Origin: Promethearchaeota archaeon
GTDB taxonomy: Archaea; Asgardarchaeota; Lokiarchaeia; Sigyniarchaeales; SOKP01
DNA length: 20,620 bases
NCBI GenBank assembly: GCA_016839745.1
Contig: JAEOTS010000168.1
Span: forward strand, 1-20,620
Direction of reading: 5' to 3'
Shown here piece after piece: positions 850 to 18,750 of this stretch (within the stretch, counting starts at the first letter, position 1; each line of letters starts with the position of its first letter). The notes under the pieces are model-generated. The model was not told the DNA's origin. It saw nothing but the letters and a program-made list of their open reading frames with translations, and made no database searches. A program made the position numbers and the translations under genes.

Positions 850-1998
850 ATGTCGAATGAAACTGATGCAAAATATAAAGAAATTGGTAACATATTAAAT
901 AAGGCTGGTCCGTATATTCTTACCGATAGTGTTATAGAAATTCTAAAATACTCGATATCGGAAGAGAATTTAGACTTTTTAAAGGCATTTAAAACAAATA
1001 TCTCTCAAACAATGGAACAGTTAAAAGAGAGCATCGCAAGATATTGCGAGAATTCTTATTCTGAAAAAGAAATTTTGGAAAAAGTTGACCAGCTTGCAAA
1101 AAAAGGTGTAATGTTTGATCAACCTAATCGTCATGGCGTAGTGGTCTTTCGATTGGCGCCTATATTCCGCCAGTTTGAATATACTTTCATGAAAAAATTA
1201 GAAAAAACTGATGAATTTATAGAACTCGCGCGTTTATTCTACGAATCTGAAAAAGAATTGGGCGCCATAGCTCAAAAAGATTACGATAATCTTCCTAATA
1301 TGGTGAAAAATATGCCAGCGCAAGATCGAACCGTTCCTATTAGAAAAAATAAAGAGACTGGGGAAGAAATTAAAATAATAGTTGATGAAGATCTAGAAGT
1401 ACCTGAAGAACAGATTGTAACAGCAGAAGATATTAGAGAAATAATTGAAAAATTTGATGACATAGCTGTTGGTCAATGCTATTGTCGACAAAAAGAAGAA
1501 TTCTTGGGACACACATGTCAACAAAATCCTCCTGGAGAAAGTTGTTTCACTTTAGGTAAAAGCGCAAGACATACGACTAAACATGGCTTCACTAGACTTA
1601 TTTCTAAACAAGAAGCGTTAAAAATTATAAAAGACATTGAAGATGCGGGGTTAGTTCATAAGGTTTATCATCTTAATTCAGATTTAAGTAAAGATGAAGT
1701 AGCAATTTGCAATTGCTGCAGCTGTTGCTGTTCAACTAGTAAAGTATCTGTAATGTATCCTAACGTTAACATTTCTAATTATTTAGTAGACATCGATCAA
1801 GATTTATGTATAGGGTGTGGCACATGTGTTGAAAAATGTTTTAATCAGGTACTTGAACTAAACGATCAGGGAAAAGCAGAAAGAGTAGGAGACGAATGCG
1901 TTGGATGTGGTGTGTGTGCATACTTGTGCCCTGAAAATGCGATCTCCTTAATTAATGGGCCTTATCGGCGCGTTAACATTATACCTGAAAAGAAATAA
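850..1998 (+). CDS. Cys-rich iron-sulfur protein with a C-terminal 2x[4Fe-4S] ferredoxin domain
   Basis: CYCR…C…CF, CNCCSCCC, CIGCGTCVEKC and CVGCGVCAYLCP motifs. The ATG at 850 is preferred over the TTG at 823. Confidence 0.8.
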   Translation: MSNETDAKYKEIGNILNKAGPYILTDSVIEILKYSISEENLDFLKAFKTNISQTMEQLKESIARYCENSYSEKEILEKVDQLAKKGVMFDQPNRHGVVVFRLAPIFRQFEYTFMKKLEKTDEFIELARLFYESEKELGAIAQKDYDNLPNMVKNMPAQDRTVPIRKNKETGEEIKIIVDEDLEVPEEQIVTAEDIREIIEKFDDIAVGQCYCRQKEEFLGHTCQQNPPGESCFTLGKSARHTTKHGFTRLISKQEALKIIKDIEDAGLVHKVYHLNSDLSKDEVAICNCCSCCCSTSKVSVMYPNVNISNYLVDIDQDLCIGCGTCVEKCFNQVLELNDQGKAERVGDECVGCGVCAYLCPENAISLINGPYRRVNIIPEKK

Positions 1999-2106
1999 GC
2001 TTGAAAATTAAATTTTTATTTGCTTTTTAATTTAAATTAAAAAAAGTTTTCTTCAGAATTTTTTTAAAAAAAATTATTCAAAAAAAGAAAAATGTAATAG
2101 AATTAA

Positions 2107-2904
2107 TTATTTAATTTTTTTCGCTTCCTCAATCCAATCTTCAATCATTTTTAATGTTGGAGGTTTTCTAAACACATCAGGTTTTTCTTTATCCAGTTTC
2201 CCGATGCGATCTAGAGTGTTATTAGGATTACGTTGAGCTAATTCTTTAACTGAATCGATTCCGATTTCATTAATAACCTCAGCGTATTCAGGACCTATAC
2301 CATCAATTCTCATCAAATCAGCGTGTTCTGCCCATTTATCTATTAATTTTTCTGATATCTTTGTTTTTTTAGCTAAATTTTTAATCGCTTTTCTGTCTAA
2401 TCCTATTAAACTCTCAACATCAAGAAATCCTGCTTTTTCCAAAGTCTTCCCGTATTTAACACCGATTCCCTCGAGGTCGATAATCGGGGTTTCCTTTGGG
2501 GTTGTTTTAGTTTTCTTCACATTGTTTATATCTTGTGCTTCCTTGATCCAACCTTCAACATCTTCAACTTTTGGAATTTTTCTAATAACATCCGGTTGCT
2601 TCTTGTCAAACTCAACAATACTCTCTAATGTATTTTTAGGATTACGATAAGCAAGTTCTTGCGTAGAATCAATACCTACTTTATTTAAAACTTCTGAATA
2701 TTCAGGTCCAATACCTTTAATTGTCATTAACTCCGCTTGATCTTGCCATTTTTCAATTAATTTTAAAGAAATACTCGTGGTATTTGCCAAGTCTTTAATT
2801 TCTCTCCATTTTAAAGGTATTAAGTCTTCTACATTTTCAACGGAAGCTTTTCCTAATGTTTTTGCATATTTCTCTCCAATGCCTTCAATATCAATAATTT
2901 TCAT
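2107..2904 (-). CDS. Tandem DUF4332 (helix-hairpin-helix) domain protein
   Basis: Two homologous halves (IIDIEGIGEKYAKTL / IIDLEGIGVKYGKTL; LMTIKGIGPEYSEVL / LMRIDGIGPEYAEVI; ELAYRNP / ELAQRNP; WIKEA / WIEEA) joined by a Lys/Thr/Pro linker. Confidence 0.8.
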   Translation of the reverse strand: MKIIDIEGIGEKYAKTLGKASVENVEDLIPLKWREIKDLANTTSISLKLIEKWQDQAELMTIKGIGPEYSEVLNKVGIDSTQELAYRNPKNTLESIVEFDKKQPDVIRKIPKVEDVEGWIKEAQDINNVKKTKTTPKETPIIDLEGIGVKYGKTLEKAGFLDVESLIGLDRKAIKNLAKKTKISEKLIDKWAEHADLMRIDGIGPEYAEVINEIGIDSVKELAQRNPNNTLDRIGKLDKEKPDVFRKPPTLKMIEDWIEEAKKIK

Positions 2905-4572: not shown

Positions 4573-5490
4573 CTATATCTTAATTCCTAAGATTTCTTTA
4601 GCTTCATCAACAGTTGCAACTTCTCTATCAATTTCATTAGCAATCCTGACCATCCTCTTTACTAGTTGGGCGTTACTTTCAGCAAGTTCTCCTTTTCGAT
4701 AATAAATAGTATCTTCTAAACCGGTTCTTATATTTCCTCCCATACTCATAGCCATTACAGTCGTTCGCAAATTAAATTTACCAACCGTAACGACTTGCCA
4801 TGTCGAAGCTTCGGGTAACTGATCCACCATATGCATTAAATTAGCTGGCTCCGCTTCAGCTCCTCCTTTTATGCCTAAAACTATACTGAAGTGTAATGGA
4901 GGTTTTAATAATCCTGTCTCGACAAATTCTAAAACATTAGTAATGTGGCTTGAATCATATACTTCGATTTCTATCCCAAAACCCTTTTTATTGCACCTTT
5001 TGATGTATTTACGATTGAAATCTTGAGGATTCATAAACATATCACCACCATATGGCGTTCTAAATTCAAATGAACCAGCGTTAATGGTGTGCATCTCGGG
5101 TTTAGGGTCAATATTTAATAGATTAAGTCGTTCTTCTAAGGATGGTTGGATAATTTCAGTGGTCATTCTTTTTTTACCAGATTTAGTTATGAACTTATGT
5201 TCAATGACTCGTGCACCAATACCATTCCCAATTTGTCTTATCATCGGACACTTATCGCCAATCAATTTAACAGTTTTATTGTAATAATTCAAATCAGGAG
5301 TATTCTGACCATCATCACCACGAACATGTATATGAACGATCGAAGCACCCGCTTCATAACATTCTAAGGCAGCCTGAGCCTGCTCCTCAGCAGTTAAGGG
5401 TAATGAAGGATTAGCCCATTTACCATGAATTCCGCCTGTAATTGCGGCAGTAATTATAACCTTTTTATCTGTTAATAAATTCGGTTTCAT
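4573..5490 (-). CDS. Beta-keto acid cleavage enzyme (BKACE / Kce / DUF849 family)
   Basis: VIITAAITGG, ECYEAGASIVHIHVR (Zn His ligands), EIEVYD and GGNIRTGLED motifs. The ATG at 5490 avoids overlap with the upstream gene; the track start at 5580 is probably too long. Confidence 0.9.
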   Translation of the reverse strand: MKPNLLTDKKVIITAAITGGIHGKWANPSLPLTAEEQAQAALECYEAGASIVHIHVRGDDGQNTPDLNYYNKTVKLIGDKCPMIRQIGNGIGARVIEHKFITKSGKKRMTTEIIQPSLEERLNLLNIDPKPEMHTINAGSFEFRTPYGGDMFMNPQDFNRKYIKRCNKKGFGIEIEVYDSSHITNVLEFVETGLLKPPLHFSIVLGIKGGAEAEPANLMHMVDQLPEASTWQVVTVGKFNLRTTVMAMSMGGNIRTGLEDTIYYRKGELAESNAQLVKRMVRIANEIDREVATVDEAKEILGIKI

Positions 5491-5555
5491 TTTCTTCAAC
5501 TTATTATTGGTTTTATTTCTAACAGAACTTAATCTTACTTTTAAATGGACAAACA

Positions 5556-6407
5556 TTAAGACTTCTTCTTTTTTTTCCAAGTGTAGAATCCTTTTCCAGT
5601 TTTCATACCAAGATCTCCATTTTCTACCATTTGTTTGAGAGCATCTGGTGGTTTATCGCGAGGATCTCCACTTTCTTCGAAATAAGACATTTGTACAGCA
5701 TATACAGTATCTAATCCAATTCCGTCCATTAAGACAAAAGGACCCATTTTCATACCTGTAAAAATCTTCCATGCTGTGTCAATAGTCTCTATGTCAGCGT
5801 ATCCTTTGTCCCACATATTTAAAGCCTCTTTTCTCGCAGAATGCCAGATTCTATTAAACACAAAACCCAGACATTCCTTTTTAACAACGATAGGTTCGCA
5901 TCCTATATTTTTTATCCAATTTTTACCCGTTTCAAATGTTTCGTCACTTGTACCGGTCCCACGCATGATATCTACCATTGGGCGTGTTGGAATAGGTGGA
6001 TAAAAATGTAAATTTAAAACTTTGTCCTTTCTTTTAACTGCAGATTCAATCTTTGACACGGGATAGGAAGAACTATTTGTCCCTATTATTGTATGAACAG
6101 GCGCAAAATTATCTATCTGCGAAAAAACTTCCTTCTTTAACCCTAAATCTTCTGGGACTGCTTCAATTACGAGGTCAACGTCTTCAAGGGCATCTCTCAA
6201 ATCTGAATAATAGGATACCTTCTTAATTGTATCTAATTGGTTTTTTCGTTTTAGTCGTCCCGTGATATATTTTTTAGCGTCTTCGACAATATTTGGGTTA
6301 ATATCATAGACAATTACTATAAAATCGTGTAAAGCTGCTTGAGCAGCTATTTGTTTTCCGGTAAAACCAGCTCCAATAATTCCAACTTTTTTAATTTTAT
6401 TTCTCAT
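5556..6407 (-). CDS. 3-hydroxyacyl-CoA dehydrogenase family protein
   Basis: Rossmann GAGFTG, EAVPEDL.LK, NSSS, LHF, GFVFNR, MGPF.LMDGIGLD and GDLGMKTGKGFY motifs. Confidence 0.88.
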   Translation of the reverse strand: MRNKIKKVGIIGAGFTGKQIAAQAALHDFIVIVYDINPNIVEDAKKYITGRLKRKNQLDTIKKVSYYSDLRDALEDVDLVIEAVPEDLGLKKEVFSQIDNFAPVHTIIGTNSSSYPVSKIESAVKRKDKVLNLHFYPPIPTRPMVDIMRGTGTSDETFETGKNWIKNIGCEPIVVKKECLGFVFNRIWHSARKEALNMWDKGYADIETIDTAWKIFTGMKMGPFVLMDGIGLDTVYAVQMSYFEESGDPRDKPPDALKQMVENGDLGMKTGKGFYTWKKKKKS

Positions 6408-6443
6408 TCTAAATCCTGCTATTCGATTGCCCTAATTTATTGA

Positions 6444-7271
6444 TTAAAATTTAGTATTTAACCAAGATTTGATTTCTTTAAATTTCTCTTCAGTGAATTG
6501 CACAGCATGCTTAGCACCGGGCATTATAAAGAACTTCTTATCTTTGCAAGGAAGTTCGTCGAGCAGCGATTGAGCCGATTCAACAGAGAATAATTCATCG
6601 TGTTCTCCTACACCAAGAAGTATGGGACATTTTATCTCTTCTGTAAGGTCTAAATCTTTAAAACCTACTAGCCTTATAAATCGTAATGTGTATTTAAAAT
6701 TGAATAACGGATCGTCTAAGCCTAAAATGCCCTCTCGATAGTATTTTATCACAGGTTTGCTAGGTCGAAAAATTGAGCTAAAAAGTATTTTTAATTTCTG
6801 TAGAGCTGAAGGACTTTTGTATACTCCTGGTTTAACAGTTATACCGGCACTCAATAATATTAAACCGTCAATTTTTACATCACTATTCAATTTTGCTAAT
6901 AATGCGGTAAGAACACCTAAACTATGTCCAAATAATATTAGCGTACTGAACTGTTTCTTCAGATGCGAGATGGTTTCAACAAGATCGCTTATTAACCTCT
7001 CTTTACTTGGATAATCGCCTCTAATACCGTCAGATAACCCATGTCCTCTTAGATCTAAACCGATTGCAGTAAATCCTGTTTTTGAGATTGCATCAGCAAA
7101 CAACTCATATGGTCCACTATAAGCTGTAATTCCATGTAAGATGAGGATTGCCTTATTTGATGGACTCTGCGATTCCCATTTCCTTAAAAATAATGTAATG
7201 CCATCAGAAGTATTAACTAAGTCGAAAGGTTCTTTGAAGTCTTCTCTTAACTTTTTTACATCTATTCCCAT
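6444..7271 (-). CDS. Alpha/beta hydrolase, monoacylglycerol lipase/lysophospholipase type
   Basis: LHG, DLRGHGLSDG.RG, nucleophile GHSLG, GEHD and AKH motifs. ATG at 7271 (alternative GTG at 7280). Confidence 0.85.
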   Translation of the reverse strand: MGIDVKKLREDFKEPFDLVNTSDGITLFLRKWESQSPSNKAILILHGITAYSGPYELFADAISKTGFTAIGLDLRGHGLSDGIRGDYPSKERLISDLVETISHLKKQFSTLILFGHSLGVLTALLAKLNSDVKIDGLILLSAGITVKPGVYKSPSALQKLKILFSSIFRPSKPVIKYYREGILGLDDPLFNFKYTLRFIRLVGFKDLDLTEEIKCPILLGVGEHDELFSVESAQSLLDELPCKDKKFFIMPGAKHAVQFTEEKFKEIKSWLNTKF

Positions 7272-7355
7272 AAATACCACTTATTTTTTTAATAGACTTT
7301 TTGATAATTTAAAGTATTTTAAAAGTATAAATATTATTTCAATATTAGTATCATT

Positions 7356-8051
7356 ATGGAGAAAAACGATAATACAACAAAAACGACTAGAGATTTTATA
7401 ATAGTTCACCTTATTTTCACAGGTTTATGTTTCGCTGTTTTAATGATACCAATCCCAATTGCTATAGGGATTAAATTATTTATACTTATAGTTAGTTATA
7501 ACTTGTTAATTCCATTAGTAGGATTGTTCCGAAAATATAATGAATGGGTAAAACTTTGGGTTTTTGTTTTCTTAATAAGTTTATTCCAAATATGGCCGGA
7601 TTGGTTCCTATCGGCTCAGTTAAACATTTTAGTCTTTCCTGAGGATGGACTTTTTAAAATTGGCCCTGTTTCAGGATACATGGCGGGATTATGGGCGATC
7701 CCTTTATTTTTACTTTGTTTTATTGGACTGAAGATAAGAGAAAATTATTCCCGCTTTAAGAGCTATTTTGTCGTAGGATTACTTGCTTTTGGTATTTTTG
7801 TATTCTCCGAACAGACATTGTGGATGCTTCAATCGTGGTACCCTCAAAATGTCACTCTGTTTTTCGATCATCTAGCCGTATACATAATTATTCCTGAAGT
7901 TCTACTAGGTTTAAGTACATTTTATTACTTCGAAAAGGTAAAAACTCAGCACTTTTTAATATTAATCTCGGTGGCTTTTGGTATAATGCTTCTATATCTA
8001 GGAAGCGCCTCGTTTTTCTACTTTTTGACAGAAAAAATTATTTTTATCTAA
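7356..8051 (+). CDS. Uncharacterised integral membrane protein (tentatively DUF6989-like)
   Basis: About 7-8 hydrophobic segments and a PDWFLS…LVFP.DG…IGPV..YMAGLWAIP motif. Divergent from the lipase gene. Confidence 0.65.
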   Translation: MEKNDNTTKTTRDFIIVHLIFTGLCFAVLMIPIPIAIGIKLFILIVSYNLLIPLVGLFRKYNEWVKLWVFVFLISLFQIWPDWFLSAQLNILVFPEDGLFKIGPVSGYMAGLWAIPLFLLCFIGLKIRENYSRFKSYFVVGLLAFGIFVFSEQTLWMLQSWYPQNVTLFFDHLAVYIIIPEVLLGLSTFYYFEKVKTQHFLILISVAFGIMLLYLGSASFFYFLTEKIIFI

Positions 8052-13649: not shown

Positions 13650-14372
13650 TCATTCTAACTCCTTGCCGAAACTCTTGTAGATTAAATATGCGGCAATGGT
13701 GGAAGTTACTGGCATTATCAGAGAAGCAATTGTCCGGTATATCTGGTTGTCAACCAAAGTATGATATAAGAATACTGAAAAAACTACGCCGAGTTCTAGA
13801 AATACGCTAGCTAAAAACATATTAATCCTACGTTTTAGGATAATGCCTTCAAATACTTTTAATAGCTTTAACGAATAATATATTTGGGGTATAAGCAAAA
13901 AGATTAACAAGAATACCCAGCTAAAAATGGAAAAAAACCAATTATAAGTGGGTATCCAGTTTGTACTCGAATCATATTTTATCCCATTGAAGTAAAATCC
14001 AATCAAAAACACATAAGTTGATATGACTCCATAAAATGTAATGATTAGATGAAATTTCCAATAAGCTGATTTCTTATCGAGCTTAACAAGCACCCAACTA
14101 AAAATAACAAAAAAACAATGGCAAAAAACATAGAAATATATTCCAATTATATATGAAATGTATGCGAAAGGAGTATTCAGAACAAAAATTGAAGTGGTAG
14201 CAAAGATATATGTGATAGAATTCAAAATAAAGAGACTACTCAGAGTATAAGTTGACCTATTTTTAGCTCTCTTCAGTAATTTGTAAGCAAAATAAGAGCC
14301 ATAAAATATTGGCCATACTTGAACTATTAATAAAAAGATAATTCTTTGAGTGAGAATGCTTTGAAGTAGCAA
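13650..14372 (-). CDS. Stand-alone 7TM membrane protein, paralogue A (240 aa)
   Basis: Seven hydrophobic segments; colinear without gaps with the next two ORFs. TTG start at the position of the paralogues' ATG. Confidence 0.8.
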   Translation of the reverse strand: MLLQSILTQRIIFLLIVQVWPIFYGSYFAYKLLKRAKNRSTYTLSSLFILNSITYIFATTSIFVLNTPFAYISYIIGIYFYVFCHCFFVIFSWVLVKLDKKSAYWKFHLIITFYGVISTYVFLIGFYFNGIKYDSSTNWIPTYNWFFSIFSWVFLLIFLLIPQIYYSLKLLKVFEGIILKRRINMFLASVFLELGVVFSVFLYHTLVDNQIYRTIASLIMPVTSTIAAYLIYKSFGKELE

Positions 14373-14477
14373 TTTGGCTCATTTTTATTTTTTTAACCTA
14401 TTAGTTAAAAATTAACGCTTTTAATATTTAAATTCTAATTTTAAATAACACTAAGATTTAAAAATTCATCATTACCT

Positions 14478-14489
14478 AAAAGAGAACGA
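14478..14489 (-). terminator. Pyrimidine-rich 3' motif TCGTTCTCTTTT downstream of 7TM B
   Basis: Identical to 13626-13637. Confidence 0.4.
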
Positions 14490-14502
14490 GTAATCATCTT
14501 TT

Positions 14503-15225
14503 TCATTTTAACTCTTTTATAAAACTTTTATAGATTAGAAATGCGGATATAGGTGAGACTAAAATCACTAACGACATGTAGAATGCCCCGAATAATGGAT
14601 TATCAATCAAAACACGATATAAAAAGAATGTAAAAACCACTACGAGTTCTATAAATGTGCAAATTATAAACATTTTAATCCTACGTTTTAGGATGACTCC
14701 TTCAAATATTTTTAAAAGCTTAAATGAAAAATAAATTTGGGGTATAATTAAAAAGGCTACTAAAAAAGCCCAACTGAAAATGAGAAAAAACCAGCTAAAG
14801 CGAGGTACCCAATTTGTAGTCGAATTATATAATATCCCATTGAAGAAAAACCCTATCCAGAAAACATAAGTAGATATGATTCCATAAAGAATAATGGTTA
14901 AAGAAAACTTCCAATTAGGAGATTTCTCGTCAAGCTTTACAAGCACCCAACTAAAAATAATAAAAAAGCAATGATCAAAAAACAAAAAATACACTGCTAA
15001 TATATAAAAGAAGTATGCCATGGGAGTAAATAGAAACAAAATTGAAAGATTAGCAAGGACATCTGTGAGAGCAAATAAAATAAAGAAACTACTCAGGGTA
15101 TATATTGACCTATTTTTAGCTCGCTTAAGCAATTTGTAGGCGAAATAAGAGCAATAAAATATTGGCCAAATTTGAATAATTAATACAAAGATAATTCTTT
15201 GAGTAAAAATGGTTTGAAGTAGCAT
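14503..15225 (-). CDS. Stand-alone 7TM membrane protein, paralogue B (240 aa)
   Basis: Same length and motifs (WPIFY, YKLLKRAK, FSWVLVKLD, IPQIY, KRRI.MF, YKSF.KEL). Confidence 0.82.
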   Translation of the reverse strand: MLLQTIFTQRIIFVLIIQIWPIFYCSYFAYKLLKRAKNRSIYTLSSFFILFALTDVLANLSILFLFTPMAYFFYILAVYFLFFDHCFFIIFSWVLVKLDEKSPNWKFSLTIILYGIISTYVFWIGFFFNGILYNSTTNWVPRFSWFFLIFSWAFLVAFLIIPQIYFSFKLLKIFEGVILKRRIKMFIICTFIELVVVFTFFLYRVLIDNPLFGAFYMSLVILVSPISAFLIYKSFIKELK

Positions 15226-15253
15226 TGTGTCTATTTTGTTTATTTTAAGTATA

Positions 15254-15271
15254 TATACTTTAAAGTTAACT
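15254..15271 (-). promoter_or_regulatory. Conserved upstream element of 7TM paralogue B (TATA-like TTTAAA within palindrome ACTTTAAAGT)
   Basis: tatactttaaagttaact is identical to 16026-16043; TTTAAA lies 34-39 nt upstream of the ATG. Confidence 0.6.
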
Positions 15272-15277
15272 TGTTTT

Positions 15278-16000
15278 TTAATCTAACTCTTTACCGAAAC
15301 TCTTATAGAGTAAATAGGCGGCTATTGTTGAAGTTTCTGGCACTAACATAATGAAGATTAGCCTAAAAATCTCATTATCCACCCAGGTGTTATATAAGAA
15401 TAGTGAAAAAACCACGGAAAGTTCTAGGAATGCGCTAATTATAAACATGTTAATCCTGCGCCTTAGTTTAGCTCCTTCAAATATTTTGTAAAGTTTAAAA
15501 GAATAGTATATTTGTGGTATTAGTAAAAAGATTACTAAAAAAACCCAAGCAAAGATGAGAAATGACAAGCTATAAGTAGGTATCCAAGAGGTACTCGAAT
15601 CATACTTTATCCCTTCGAAGAAAAACCCAATCAATAAAACGAATGTTGAAATGATACCATAAAAGGTAATAATTAAATGAAATTTCCAATAAGGAGATTT
15701 CTCATCAAGTTTTACAAGCACCCAACTAAAAATAATGAAAAAACAATGGCTGAAAACGAAAAAATATATCCCAAATATATAAAAAAAGTATGCGAGGGGC
15801 GTATCAAAAAAGAAAATTGAGAAAGTAGCAAGGAAATATGTGAGAGAAATTAAAAGAAAGAAGCTACTCAGAGTTAAAGTCGATCTACTTTTAGCTCGTT
15901 TAAGTAATTTATAAGCGAAATATGAGCAGTAAAAAATAGGCCAAATTTGAACAAGCAAAATGATGATTATTCTTTGAGTAAGAACTTCTTGGAGTAGCAT
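15278..16000 (-). CDS. Stand-alone 7TM membrane protein, paralogue C (240 aa)
   Basis: Same length and motifs as A and B. Confidence 0.82.
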   Translation of the reverse strand: MLLQEVLTQRIIIILLVQIWPIFYCSYFAYKLLKRAKSRSTLTLSSFFLLISLTYFLATFSIFFFDTPLAYFFYIFGIYFFVFSHCFFIIFSWVLVKLDEKSPYWKFHLIITFYGIISTFVLLIGFFFEGIKYDSSTSWIPTYSLSFLIFAWVFLVIFLLIPQIYYSFKLYKIFEGAKLRRRINMFIISAFLELSVVFSLFLYNTWVDNEIFRLIFIMLVPETSTIAAYLLYKSFGKELD

Positions 16001-16025
16001 TTTGCCTATAATAATTTTAAATATG

Positions 16026-16043
16026 TATACTTTAAAGTTAACT
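16026..16043 (-). promoter_or_regulatory. Conserved upstream element of 7TM paralogue C
   Basis: Identical 18-mer; TTTAAA lies 31-36 nt upstream of the ATG. Confidence 0.6.
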
Positions 16044-16088: not shown

Positions 16089-16667
16089 TCACTTCGAAAA
16101 TACTTCATATTTTAATATTTCAGCTCGATAATATTTCCAAATTGTATCATAAATCTTTCTTTGAAAACGCTGACTACTCAAAGTTTTAACGGGTGTATTT
16201 GTTATTAAATCATTTATTGATAGAATAATGGTTTCTGTATATACCTTAAATTTTTCACGGATTTTCTCTTCCTCTTTAATACCATCCACATAACCTTTAA
16301 TAATGTCATTTAACGATTCGCTTACGCTACTTACGGTTGGAAGAATAAATTTTTCGTATTTTTTCCGGATTGTAGGCTTTACATAGATTCTTATTACTTG
16401 TTTTCCGTTTACAGTGGTTTTCTTCTTAAAAGCAAATCCTTTTTTACATAAATTATTAATGTAATCATACCCCTTAGTTTGACTTTTATGATCAAATTCT
16501 AAATCAATAATTTTTTTCAGAATTGATTGTTCTTCTCCTTCATGCATCAGAAGAATCATAAATGCTTCAAATTCGCGCATCGATAATTCTCTTAGATTAA
16601 AAGCATTATCTTTTGAACGAGGGATCTTTCCAATCTCAAGTTTTTGGGGAGAGATGTTATCTTCCAT
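16089..16667 (-). CDS. Putative winged helix-turn-helix DNA-binding protein with a C-terminal helical domain
   Basis: LSMREFEAFMILL…KGYDYINNLCKKGFAFKK…NGKQVIRIYV fits the helix / recognition helix-KG / wing pattern of TrmB/MarR-like wHTH domains. ATG at 16667. Confidence 0.6.
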   Translation of the reverse strand: MEDNISPQKLEIGKIPRSKDNAFNLRELSMREFEAFMILLMHEGEEQSILKKIIDLEFDHKSQTKGYDYINNLCKKGFAFKKKTTVNGKQVIRIYVKPTIRKKYEKFILPTVSSVSESLNDIIKGYVDGIKEEEKIREKFKVYTETIILSINDLITNTPVKTLSSQRFQRKIYDTIWKYYRAEILKYEVFSK

Positions 16668-16883
16668 AATCAAATACAATTTTCAGCTTATGCTTTATTA
16701 GTTGTTTTCTAATGTAAAATTAATTAATCACAATTTTTAGTCAAATTGTCAAATCTGTAAAGAATAAAATATAGTGATTATATAAAAATTTATGGTTCTA
16801 ATTTATAGATATTTCCTCGCAATTGTAAAAATTTTCTTTTAAATTAAAGAACTGAGCTCAAAAATTCACGTTTTTAACAACAT

Positions 16884-16943
16884 TTCTCCAAGATTGGGGA
16901 GGTCCTTTAAATACTCTATGAACTTTTCCTCAAAATTGGGGAA
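16884..16943. repeat. Pair of 18-bp imperfect palindromes (consensus TTCYYCAA-RA-TTGGGGAR), 42 bp apart
   Basis: ttctccaagattggggag at 16884-16901 and ttcctcaaaattggggaa at 16926-16943. Confidence 0.6.
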
Positions 16944-17116
16944 TAAAGCTTAAATTTTATATCGACAATAGAATATTAAGATAGTTTGACATTTTAATTA
17001 AGTTCAAGATTACAGATAAAAATCTCGGGTGGGGTTAGGTTATTTTAATCTATTAAAATCGTCAATTCGACTTTTTTAATAGGTAGAGAGAATTTTTTGG
17101 GGGCAAAATTTTACTT

Positions 17117-17700: not shown

Positions 17701-18750
17701 TTAGTTTTTTTCTAATCTTGAATTGATAACAGATTCTGCTATGTCGTAGAAAGCATATTCTACGTTTTTTCCGGTCATAGCGGAGGTTTCTATATATTTA
17801 AGATTTAATTCCTTAGCTAATGCTAAAGCTTCAACTAATTTAACTTTACGCACTTCTGTAAGATCAGTTTTATTGCCGAAGATATATCCAATCATCTTTA
17901 AATGATGCTTTTCCATATTTTTTATTACATCTTCGTACCAATTTTTAATACTGTTAAAGGAGATTCTGTTTGTCAAGTCAAAAATAAGTAAGATAGCCTC
18001 TGAACCTTGGTAAAAGTGTCTTCTCATCGTTTGGAACTTATTTTGGCCAGCGATGTCCCATAATATTGTTTCTATTGCTTTACCATTAGCATGTATGATT
18101 TTTTCAGTAATACTAACTCCTAATGTAGGAACATAGGTTCTTAGAAATGCGTTATCAGTAAACCGTAAAATTGTTGAAGTTTTTCCGACACCTGGATCTC
18201 CTACTACTACGAGTTTGAACCGATAATCAACGATCTTATCGTCCCTTACTATTATTTCGGGAAATTCTTTTGATGGTGGGAAAGAAACTTCTTTTGCGCG
18301 AAAATCGTCTAATAATTGACCTACACTAATTCTAAGTACATTGATCTCCTCAAAAATTCTTTCTCTCTCAACTTTCTGTTCTTCTAATTCTATGATTTTT
18401 CTTGTTGTTTCATCAAAAGGAGCCTTTAAATAGCTCATATATTTATAAAAGACAACATCGTCTGCTTCTTTAAATAAAAAAGTAATCGCTGATCGCGCAA
18501 ATCCTCCTCTTTTGCTCTCGTCTTCTCTTTCTATATACCTTATTAATCCTTTTAGTTTTAACGAAGGGAAGGGAATTATTAATAAAGAACCCGGCACAGA
18601 TCCTTGATCTCCTGTGAGAATAGTTACAGATTTAATAGCAACAAGCATTCTTATCGATTCTGGCAAATCTGAAGGTAACCAATGAATAGGATCTGGTCCT
18701 AATTCATCGTGAATATCGGTGTAAATTACAGCATCAATTAGTTTCTTCAT
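17701..18750 (-). CDS. Rab-like small GTPase with an N-terminal longin/uDENN-like domain
   Basis: G1 GDPGVGKTS, G2 YVPTLG, G3 WDIAGQ, G4 NKTD, G5 ETSA. About 175-aa N-terminal extension with an HDELGP motif and an RGG.R-beta strand. Confidence 0.85.
   Translation of the reverse strand: MKKLIDAVIYTDIHDELGPDPIHWLPSDLPESIRMLVAIKSVTILTGDQGSVPGSLLIIPFPSLKLKGLIRYIEREDESKRGGFARSAITFLFKEADDVVFYKYMSYLKAPFDETTRKIIELEEQKVERERIFEEINVLRISVGQLLDDFRAKEVSFPPSKEFPEIIVRDDKIVDYRFKLVVVGDPGVGKTSTILRFTDNAFLRTYVPTLGVSITEKIIHANGKAIETILWDIAGQNKFQTMRRHFYQGSEAILLIFDLTNRISFNSIKNWYEDVIKNMEKHHLKMIGYIFGNKTDLTEVRKVKLVEALALAKELNLKYIETSAMTGKNVEYAFYDIAESVINSRLEKN

Follow-up and report, generated by a model that had tools for sequence, protein, structure and literature searches.

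By sequence, the G protein-coupled receptors (GPCRs) of eukaryotes cannot be traced to prokaryotes (PMC13581589). A structure-mining paper of 2026 connects the seven-transmembrane (7TM) modules of archaeal kinases to the GPCR fold (PMC13581589), and a bioRxiv preprint of the same year refers to structural clusters from Asgard archaea that are 7TM and GPCR-like (10.64898/2026.10.28.762692). The HisKA_7TM module (PF16927) is treated as a sensor domain of archaeal kinases (PMC5847659, PMC6944256). The coupling of sensory rhodopsins I and II (SRI and SRII) to the transducers HtrI and HtrII has also been described (PMC13466386). Here we describe a tandem array of three genes for stand-alone 7TM proteins in a Promethearchaeota archaeon. 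The array lies in a stretch of 20,620 nucleotides, positions 1 to 20,620 of contig JAEOTS010000168.1 (assembly GCA_016839745.1), which is referred to as the window. The window is AT-rich, with a G+C content of 26-37%. The array genes, in the order of transcription, are as follows.

15278..16000, minus strand: 7TM paralogue 1 (P0003), the first array gene, 240 aa with an ATG start, supported by its open reading frame (ORF) and translation, a seven-helix AlphaFold2 model, and structural matches to the GPCR fold
14503..15225, minus strand: 7TM paralogue 2 (P0002), 240 aa, ATG start, the most diverged of the three copies
13650..14372, minus strand: 7TM paralogue 3 (P0001), 240 aa, TTG start

The array very probably consists of tandem paralogues of an Asgard family of stand-alone 7TM proteins that have the N-terminus outside and the C-terminus inside (N-out/C-in), adopt a GPCR-type predicted fold and are remote homologues of HisKA_7TM. 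A preliminary description made from the sequence had reported three adjacent genes of equal length whose products align without gaps, and the ORFs and their alignment agree with it. Pairwise identity among the three proteins is 64-73%, with a mean column identity of 82%. At the nucleotide level the copies are 75-77% identical, and their synonymous divergence (dS) is 0.67-1.08. The ratio of nonsynonymous to synonymous divergence (dN/dS) ranges from 0.15 to 0.33, with 0.15 for copy 3 against copy 1 and 0.29-0.33 for copy 2 against the others. These values of DNA identity, dS and dN/dS indicate that the copies are old duplicates, each under purifying selection, and not an assembly artifact.

The seven hydrophobic segments listed in the preliminary description were recovered close to the positions given there. 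Kyte-Doolittle analysis placed them at residues ~9-30, 43-65, 69-96, 107-128, 143-168, 183-207, and 214-232. An AlphaFold2 (AF2) model built from a 45-sequence alignment (mean pLDDT 89.2, pTM 0.86) contains helices at 6-33, 39-63, 68-96, 104-127, 145-173, 177-205, and 210-237. Basic clusters follow TM1, TM3, TM5, and TM7 (residues 31-39, 97-106, 169-182, and 233-237), again as had been described. The loops after these four helices carry on average 14.7-14.9 Lys and Arg residues, compared to 1.4-2.3 in the other loops. The inside count exceeds the outside count in all 45 close relatives and in all 95 diverse relatives. Application of the positive-inside rule to these counts puts the N-terminus outside and the C-terminus inside, which is the topology that had been proposed and not its N-in opposite. 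The outside loop between TM4 and TM5, suggested earlier to be a beta-hairpin, forms a small two-stranded bridge in the AF2 model.

When the model was compared to solved structures with Foldseek, the best 50 matches in the PDB were all GPCRs (TM-score 0.47-0.63), with weak E-values of 4e-3 and worse. No transporter or enzyme fold was present among these best 50 matches listed. The array proteins are thus predicted to form a GPCR-type 7TM bundle, which is a statement about the modeled fold only.

Is the likeness to HisKA_7TM, which the preliminary description had noted at the level of topology, also one of descent? A reference profile was made from 17 aligned bona fide HisKA_7TM domains of Asgard genomes. 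In the cases examined, the domain forms the start of a protein that also has PAS, HisKA, and HATPase_c domains. The family profile matched this reference with an hhalign probability of 64.6% (E 6e-5) over 163 in-register columns, and the probability rose to 83% when divergent members were added to the family profile. Eight divergent stand-alone members of Heimdall type, from other Asgard families, served as intermediates. Alone, these eight matched HisKA_7TM at 95.4% (E 1.7e-8, 209 columns) and the array's family at 99.3% (E 3.5e-20). All controls remained at 0.1-0.9%, including reversed profiles (0.3%) and 17 Asgard rhodopsins (0.1%), the latter being another N-out 7TM family.

Independent evidence comes from the ESM Atlas, which was queried with a homologue of 63% identity. 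A sibling cluster bears the automatic name 'Histidine kinase N-terminal 7TM region domain-containing protein', and of the clusters with a Pfam assignment the one closest by features has PF16927. The structural neighbors at TM-scores of 0.65-0.75 are bacterial GGDEF, HD, EAL, and response-regulator proteins, and two of the clusters carry PF16927. Class A GPCR clusters at 0.69-0.74 are interleaved among them. Taken with the profile comparisons, these results strongly support the array proteins as remote homologues of HisKA_7TM and not mere topological look-alikes. Homology of this kind transfers a role, that of a sensor, but not a specificity, because the ligand of HisKA_7TM is itself unknown.

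The two groups share more than a helix count. In both, seven helices stand at the protein N-terminus with order and register in common, the hhalign alignments cover 197-217 columns, almost the full length, a basic motif follows TM1 and another precedes TM6, and the outside loop between TM4 and TM5 is conserved and contains Pro. Both occur in Asgard archaea, and in the ESM Atlas they are structural neighbors at TM-scores of 0.71-0.75. They differ in that a bona fide HisKA_7TM module is joined to PAS, HisKA, and HATPase_c or to GGDEF, HD, or EAL domains, whereas the array proteins are without any output domain. Furthermore, the array's family is multi-copy, tandemly duplicated, and Asgard-restricted, and the Pfam model of HisKA_7TM misses the window proteins. 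No match to that model was obtained at E 1 in the whole genome from which the window comes. Among 95 relatives a Pfam scan gave sub-threshold matches only; the leading ones found in more than one member were 7TMR-DISM_7TM (three members) and HisKA_7TM (two members, best E 0.005). The finding is an output-less, free-standing form of a known prokaryotic 7TM sensor module and not a new category, and the link of such modules to the GPCR fold is already in print.

A separate observation concerns a genome of the sister taxonomic family (G089), in which locus L028 holds a stand-alone 247-aa 7TM ORF (1411-2154, minus strand). This ORF scores 27.1 bits against HisKA_7TM, for which the Pfam gathering score is 28.6 bits, and its match to the array's family is weak (hhalign probability 14%). 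It may represent a second, independent output-less HisKA_7TM lineage.

The family is numerous and uniform in size. A search of 5.8 billion proteins returned 131 relatives, almost all of 238-250 aa, whose named sources (Lokiarchaeota, Hermodarchaeota, and Promethearchaeota) bear out the Asgard origin. An exhaustive search of representatives gave 148 clusters, in which every full-length protein has ~230-256 aa. A search seeded with divergent members added 61 stand-alone proteins, most of 250-270 aa, labeled Heimdall-, Hod-, or Thorarchaeota or Asgard group, with a few labeled Bathyarchaeia or Zixibacteria. Lengths across the three sets span ~225-285 aa, in keeping with the earlier statement that no output domain is attached. 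A fused form was not found; the search among proteins of 449-2000 aa was empty, which counts as weak evidence by the search's own note. The family profile matches 66 of 68 genomes of the window's taxonomic family, 7 of 7 of its sister family, and scattered genomes in five further families of the same phylum. Genomes have 1-9 matches each, with many tandem pairs. The genome of the window itself has six copies at four loci, namely the window and contigs C52, C161, and C27.

Apart from a few oddly labeled records of metagenome-assembled genomes (MAGs), the family turned up in Asgard-labeled genomes alone. The records in question are P0292, P0295, P0315, and P0323 of the divergent branch, which lie on long contigs (35-207 kb) of MAGs labeled Bathyarchaeia or Zixibacteria. 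Mis-binning, mislabeling, or occurrence beyond Asgard archaea could account for them. The three window proteins have no NCBIfam match and no Pfam match even at E 10. In a sequence search of the PDB, the 45-sequence profile found nothing and the 95-sequence profile gave three weak matches (E 0.044-2.6), none of them to a GPCR chain.

How do the array proteins compare to other 7TM systems? Eukaryotic GPCRs (the 7TM core of classes A, B2, C, and F, and the GPCR-like domain of LYCHOS/GPR155) share the N-out/C-in bundle, the hairpin-like outside loop between TM4 and TM5, and the stand-alone form, which in GPCRs goes with a partner encoded elsewhere. The array proteins differ from them in their very short termini and loops, 240 aa in total, and identity in the rows of VIA-align is 5-13%. 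No Pfam GPCR family (7tm_1, 7tm_2, 7tm_3, Frizzled, Dicty_CAR, and others) was detected in the window proteins or among the families listed for the 95 relatives. The class A motifs D/ERY, CWxP, and NPxxY are absent from the array sequences, in which TM3 ends in VLVKLDEK, TM6 is without Pro, and TM7 reads AAYL(I/L)YKSF without NP. The conserved P162 in TM5 and Y232 at the inner end of TM7 lie outside class A motif contexts. Common descent with GPCRs is not claimed; the likeness is one of the predicted model.

Sensory rhodopsins I and II of haloarchaea with their Htr transducers are stand-alone archaeal 7TM sensors that signal in trans, and they offer the best precedent for the logic proposed below. 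The array proteins are not rhodopsins themselves. They have no rhodopsin Pfam match, the hhalign control against Asgard rhodopsins was negative, and they lack the mid-TM7 Lys that binds retinal, the only Lys residues of TM7 being K233 and K237 at its cytoplasmic end. The same genome also carries a true gene of the Bac_rhodopsin family on contig C65 (6742-7317, locus L043; E 2e-23, open frame of 206 aa), which coexists with the 7TM family and is probably a schizorhodopsin-type pump.

PAQR and hemolysin III proteins are 7TM proteins whose N-terminus is inside and which have a His/Asp metal site. This identity was rejected in view of the N-out prediction for all 95 diverse relatives, the lack of an HlyIII Pfam match, and the lack of a conserved His. 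Another prokaryotic 7TM receptor module, 7TMR-DISM_7TM (PF07695) of the bacterial diverse intracellular signaling receptors, gave sub-threshold matches in 3 of the 95 relatives (best E 0.0026). Members of that family have large extracellular domains and cytoplasmic outputs, which the array proteins lack, and 151 Asgard genomes yielded no bona fide member from which a comparison profile could be made.

The distribution of conserved residues bears on function. Entropy across the three copies is lower in the inner thirds of the helices and the inner loops (0.24-0.27 bits) than in the outer and middle parts (0.53-0.64). The best-conserved part of the three is thus a strongly basic cytoplasmic face, with the motifs KLLKRAKxR after TM1, KLDEK after TM3, PQIYxSxKLxKxFEGxxLKRR after TM5, and a YKSFGKEL tail. 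The TM4-TM5 outside loop is conserved as well (G130, T137, W139, and P141). Family-wide, only R10, P141, P162, and Y232 are near-invariant, and neither an enzyme-like signature nor a conserved acidic or His/Cys constellation was found.

What do these proteins do? The preliminary description had proposed that they sense ligands and signal in trans to a cytoplasmic partner. The evidence did not support this proposal, which stands as an inference, and no partner was found at the four loci. We tentatively regard the array proteins as trans-signaling, output-less sensors, at slightly less than an even chance. A receptor function is suggested because the family is homologous to a module that otherwise drives a signaling output, because the cytoplasmic face is conserved and strongly basic, because no invariant residues look catalytic, and because copy number follows a repertoire-like pattern. 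In such a mechanism, the outer half of the bundle or the conserved outside loop between TM4 and TM5 would pick up a signal, the helices would rearrange and thereby change the basic cytoplasmic face, and this face would then bind or release a separately encoded partner. The copy number, 1-3 at the window locus and 1-9 per genome, would fit a birth-and-death receptor repertoire.

Several points weigh against homologous, signal-receiving proteins of this kind. The direct match of the Loki-type profile to HisKA_7TM reaches just 65%, and Pfam gives nothing at E 10. The N-out/C-in topology is based on the positive-inside rule and a model, not on experiment. A shared fold does not prove a function, and the PDB is heavily populated by GPCRs. 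The gradient from a conserved inside to a variable outside is clear in the three copies, weaker in 45 sequences, and absent family-wide, and a highly conserved TM4-TM5 outside loop does not fit diversified ligand recognition at that site. The neighbors of the four paralogous loci are mutually unrelated, no kinase, methyl-accepting chemotaxis protein (MCP), or G-alpha gene is linked to them, and no ligand, partner, or output was identified in the analysis.

A somewhat unlikely but serious alternative is that the family is a non-signaling membrane protein that shares the 7TM bundle, such as a transporter or channel for small molecules or ions, a protein that handles lipids, or a membrane scaffold or anchor to which cytoplasmic proteins attach. 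The absence of an output domain and of a conserved signaling neighbor is consistent with this, as is the fact that similarity of fold alone proves no function. So are the conserved polar residues within the bundle (R10, Q18, S61, Y71/74/79, and Q163). The genes upstream of the 7TM genes on contigs C52, C161, and C27 are unrelated to one another and to those of the window, and some neighbors encode transporters or lipid and envelope enzymes. The neighbors include MetRS on C52; EamA, GDSL lipase, a Na/Ca exchanger, and PIG-L on C161; and SET and MFS on C27. Distant loci in three other Asgard families have mixed neighbors too (BacA and DegV at L064). However, neighbors this inconsistent favor no particular pathway. 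Nor do the structural matches listed above or the family-wide residue pattern point to a transporter or enzyme, and the sole relatives at the sequence level are sensor modules of kinases and cyclases.

Alternatively, the proteins could be sensors that couple laterally, within the membrane, to a transducer or kinase that is membrane-bound and separately encoded, in the manner of sensory rhodopsins and Htr proteins; we consider this improbable. The precedent of SRI/SRII with HtrI/HtrII (PMC13466386) and homology to a module whose usual target is a kinase in cis both speak for lateral coupling. The genome has 12 HATPase_c matches in open frames of 221-954 aa, some of which may be membrane kinases that lack such a sensor. 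However, no kinase or MCP gene lies near any of the four loci, and the genome, at 89% completeness, yielded no MCP-type transducer. Furthermore, the best-conserved surface among the three copies is the cytoplasmic face, not a lipid-facing helix.

Could the partner instead be encoded next to the array? The gene order along transcription is Ras-family GTPase, nitroreductase, a gap, P0123, the three 7TM genes, and an S15 peptidase. Two of these genes encode conceivable partners.

16089..16679, minus strand: P0123, context gene for a soluble protein of 196 aa that weakly matches TrmB-type winged helices and whose C-terminal half is long and helical
17701-18750, minus strand: Ras-family GTPase, 349 aa, two genes upstream, 1.7 kb from the array

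In its most ambitious form, the proposal would be an Asgard trans-signaling 7TM receptor system whose proteins sense extracellular or membrane cues and act through the basic face on a soluble switch protein, for instance one of the numerous small GTPases, or on a winged-helix regulator, a prokaryotic forerunner of GPCR logic and possibly of the lineage. We think that the chances of this are slim.

P0123 is a possible partner of the 7TM proteins. Its Pfam match to TrmB (E 0.006) is below the cut-off, and its AF2 model shows an H-H-H-strand-strand pattern followed by long helices, with a pLDDT of just 55, too poor for a fold search. The gene order recurs in all six related loci that were fetched (L001-L006), with 1-3 7TM copies, and the positional orthologues of P0123 in them are 51-78% identical and always lie directly upstream of the 7TM genes. 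Adjacency at these loci is uninformative, however, because the whole ~15-kb block is syntenic there. No paralogue of P0123 was found elsewhere in the genome, and P0123 is absent from the other three 7TM loci. In two Heimdall-type genomes of the same genus (G259 and G136), a winged-helix gene is convergent to the 7TM gene (L062:5071-5862 and L063:5195-5800, both plus strand). The products of these genes, 200-263 aa and ArsR/TrmB-like, are mutual homologues (E 3e-4) and show no homology to P0123 (probability 0.2-1.2%). Two winged helix-turn-helix (wHTH) neighbors in about seven independent contexts are within chance for archaea; the pairing of 7TM and wHTH genes is a weak lead.

The GTPase has a Ras/Roc/Arf-type domain in its C-terminal part (residues 175-341; Ras E 2e-47). 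The preceding N-terminal extension of ~175 aa is without a Pfam match, and the size and position of the whole protein are kept in all related loci examined. It is highly improbable that the array proteins are proto-GPCRs that act on a small Ras/Arf-like GTPase such as this one, as exchange factor or membrane recruiter. The GPCR-like predicted fold and the wealth of small GTPases in Asgard genomes invite the idea, as does the position of the GTPase gene two genes upstream, which is kept in all related loci examined. However, synteny of the 15-kb block leaves that conserved position with little weight. The genome has 67 Ras-family genes in 3.53 Mb, one per 53 kb, so a GTPase gene is expected within 3 kb of at least one of the four loci about one time in three, and the other three loci have none. 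A nitroreductase gene and a gap of 437 bp also lie between the GTPase gene and the P0123/7TM genes. In the 89%-complete genome no G-alpha scored above the cut-off, as the top match, 21.7 bits against a threshold of 48.8, covers just the shared GTPase core, and the class A activation motifs are missing. A linkage of the GTPase to the 7TM array was therefore rejected, as the proximity is consistent with chance.

A different feature was seen near the 7TM paralogue of contig C161. An ORF for a soluble protein of 198 aa (L014:5679-6275, plus strand) lies 546 bp upstream of this divergent paralogue. By eye it resembles a degenerate small GTPase (INLGLIGTEDS, IAIANEFED, DAIIIAVNL, and VLVGVDT); it has no Pfam match at E 0.01, and the resemblance is an unverified impression.

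A reading of the genes as decayed remnants of histidine kinases, left without a function of their own after loss of the kinase halves, is effectively refuted by the data on selection and distribution. Homology to the kinase N-terminal module would suit such decay, and so would the failure to find canonical HisKA_7TM kinases in the window's taxonomic family (0 of 25 genomes, and none in the window's own), but hundreds of relatives have a uniform length of ~240 aa, dN/dS is 0.15-0.33, 66 of 68 genomes have 1-9 copies, the fold is predicted with high confidence, and an S15 peptidase gene rather than kinase fragments follows downstream.

If the array proteins are output-less relatives of HisKA_7TM, the kinase-type 7TM sensor module exists in the closest prokaryotic relatives of eukaryotes as a gene family that is free-standing, multi-copy, and tandemly duplicating. 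This free-standing, multi-copy architecture is that of eukaryotic receptors. A compact protein of 240 aa, modeled with confidence and conserved on its cytoplasmic face, is also a testable candidate for the question of whether trans-coupled 7TM signaling predated eukaryotes. If the protein is not a receptor, the group is still an Asgard-wide family of membrane proteins without annotation, and it merits a Pfam entry with a link to HisKA_7TM.

The non-coding DNA around the array contains a repeated element.

16014..16043, minus strand: AT-rich element of 30 nt whose core is TATA-like (CTTTAAAGTATA); its end lies 13 nt ahead of the ATG of copy 1
15242..15271, minus strand: second copy of the 30-nt element (2 differences), ending 16 nt ahead of the ATG of copy 2

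The element has two matches in the window, compared to none in 100 shuffles, and the region upstream of copy 3 carries just a looser version of it. The verbatim element is absent from the related loci searched. The elements are probably promoters, each array gene having its own. The longest non-coding gap of the window (16680-17116, 437 bp) separates the nitroreductase gene from P0123 and is likely a boundary between transcription units, with the GTPase/nitroreductase pair on one side and the wHTH and 7TM genes on the other. A tree of the locus copies gave no resolution, and no call on orthology or gene conversion was made.

Elsewhere in the window, co-oriented genes for an alpha/beta hydrolase, a 3-hydroxyacyl-CoA dehydrogenase, and a BKACE protein (4573-7280, minus strand) adjoin a divergent gene for a DUF6989 protein (7356-8051, plus strand). 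This region is kept in several of the related loci (L006 and L007).

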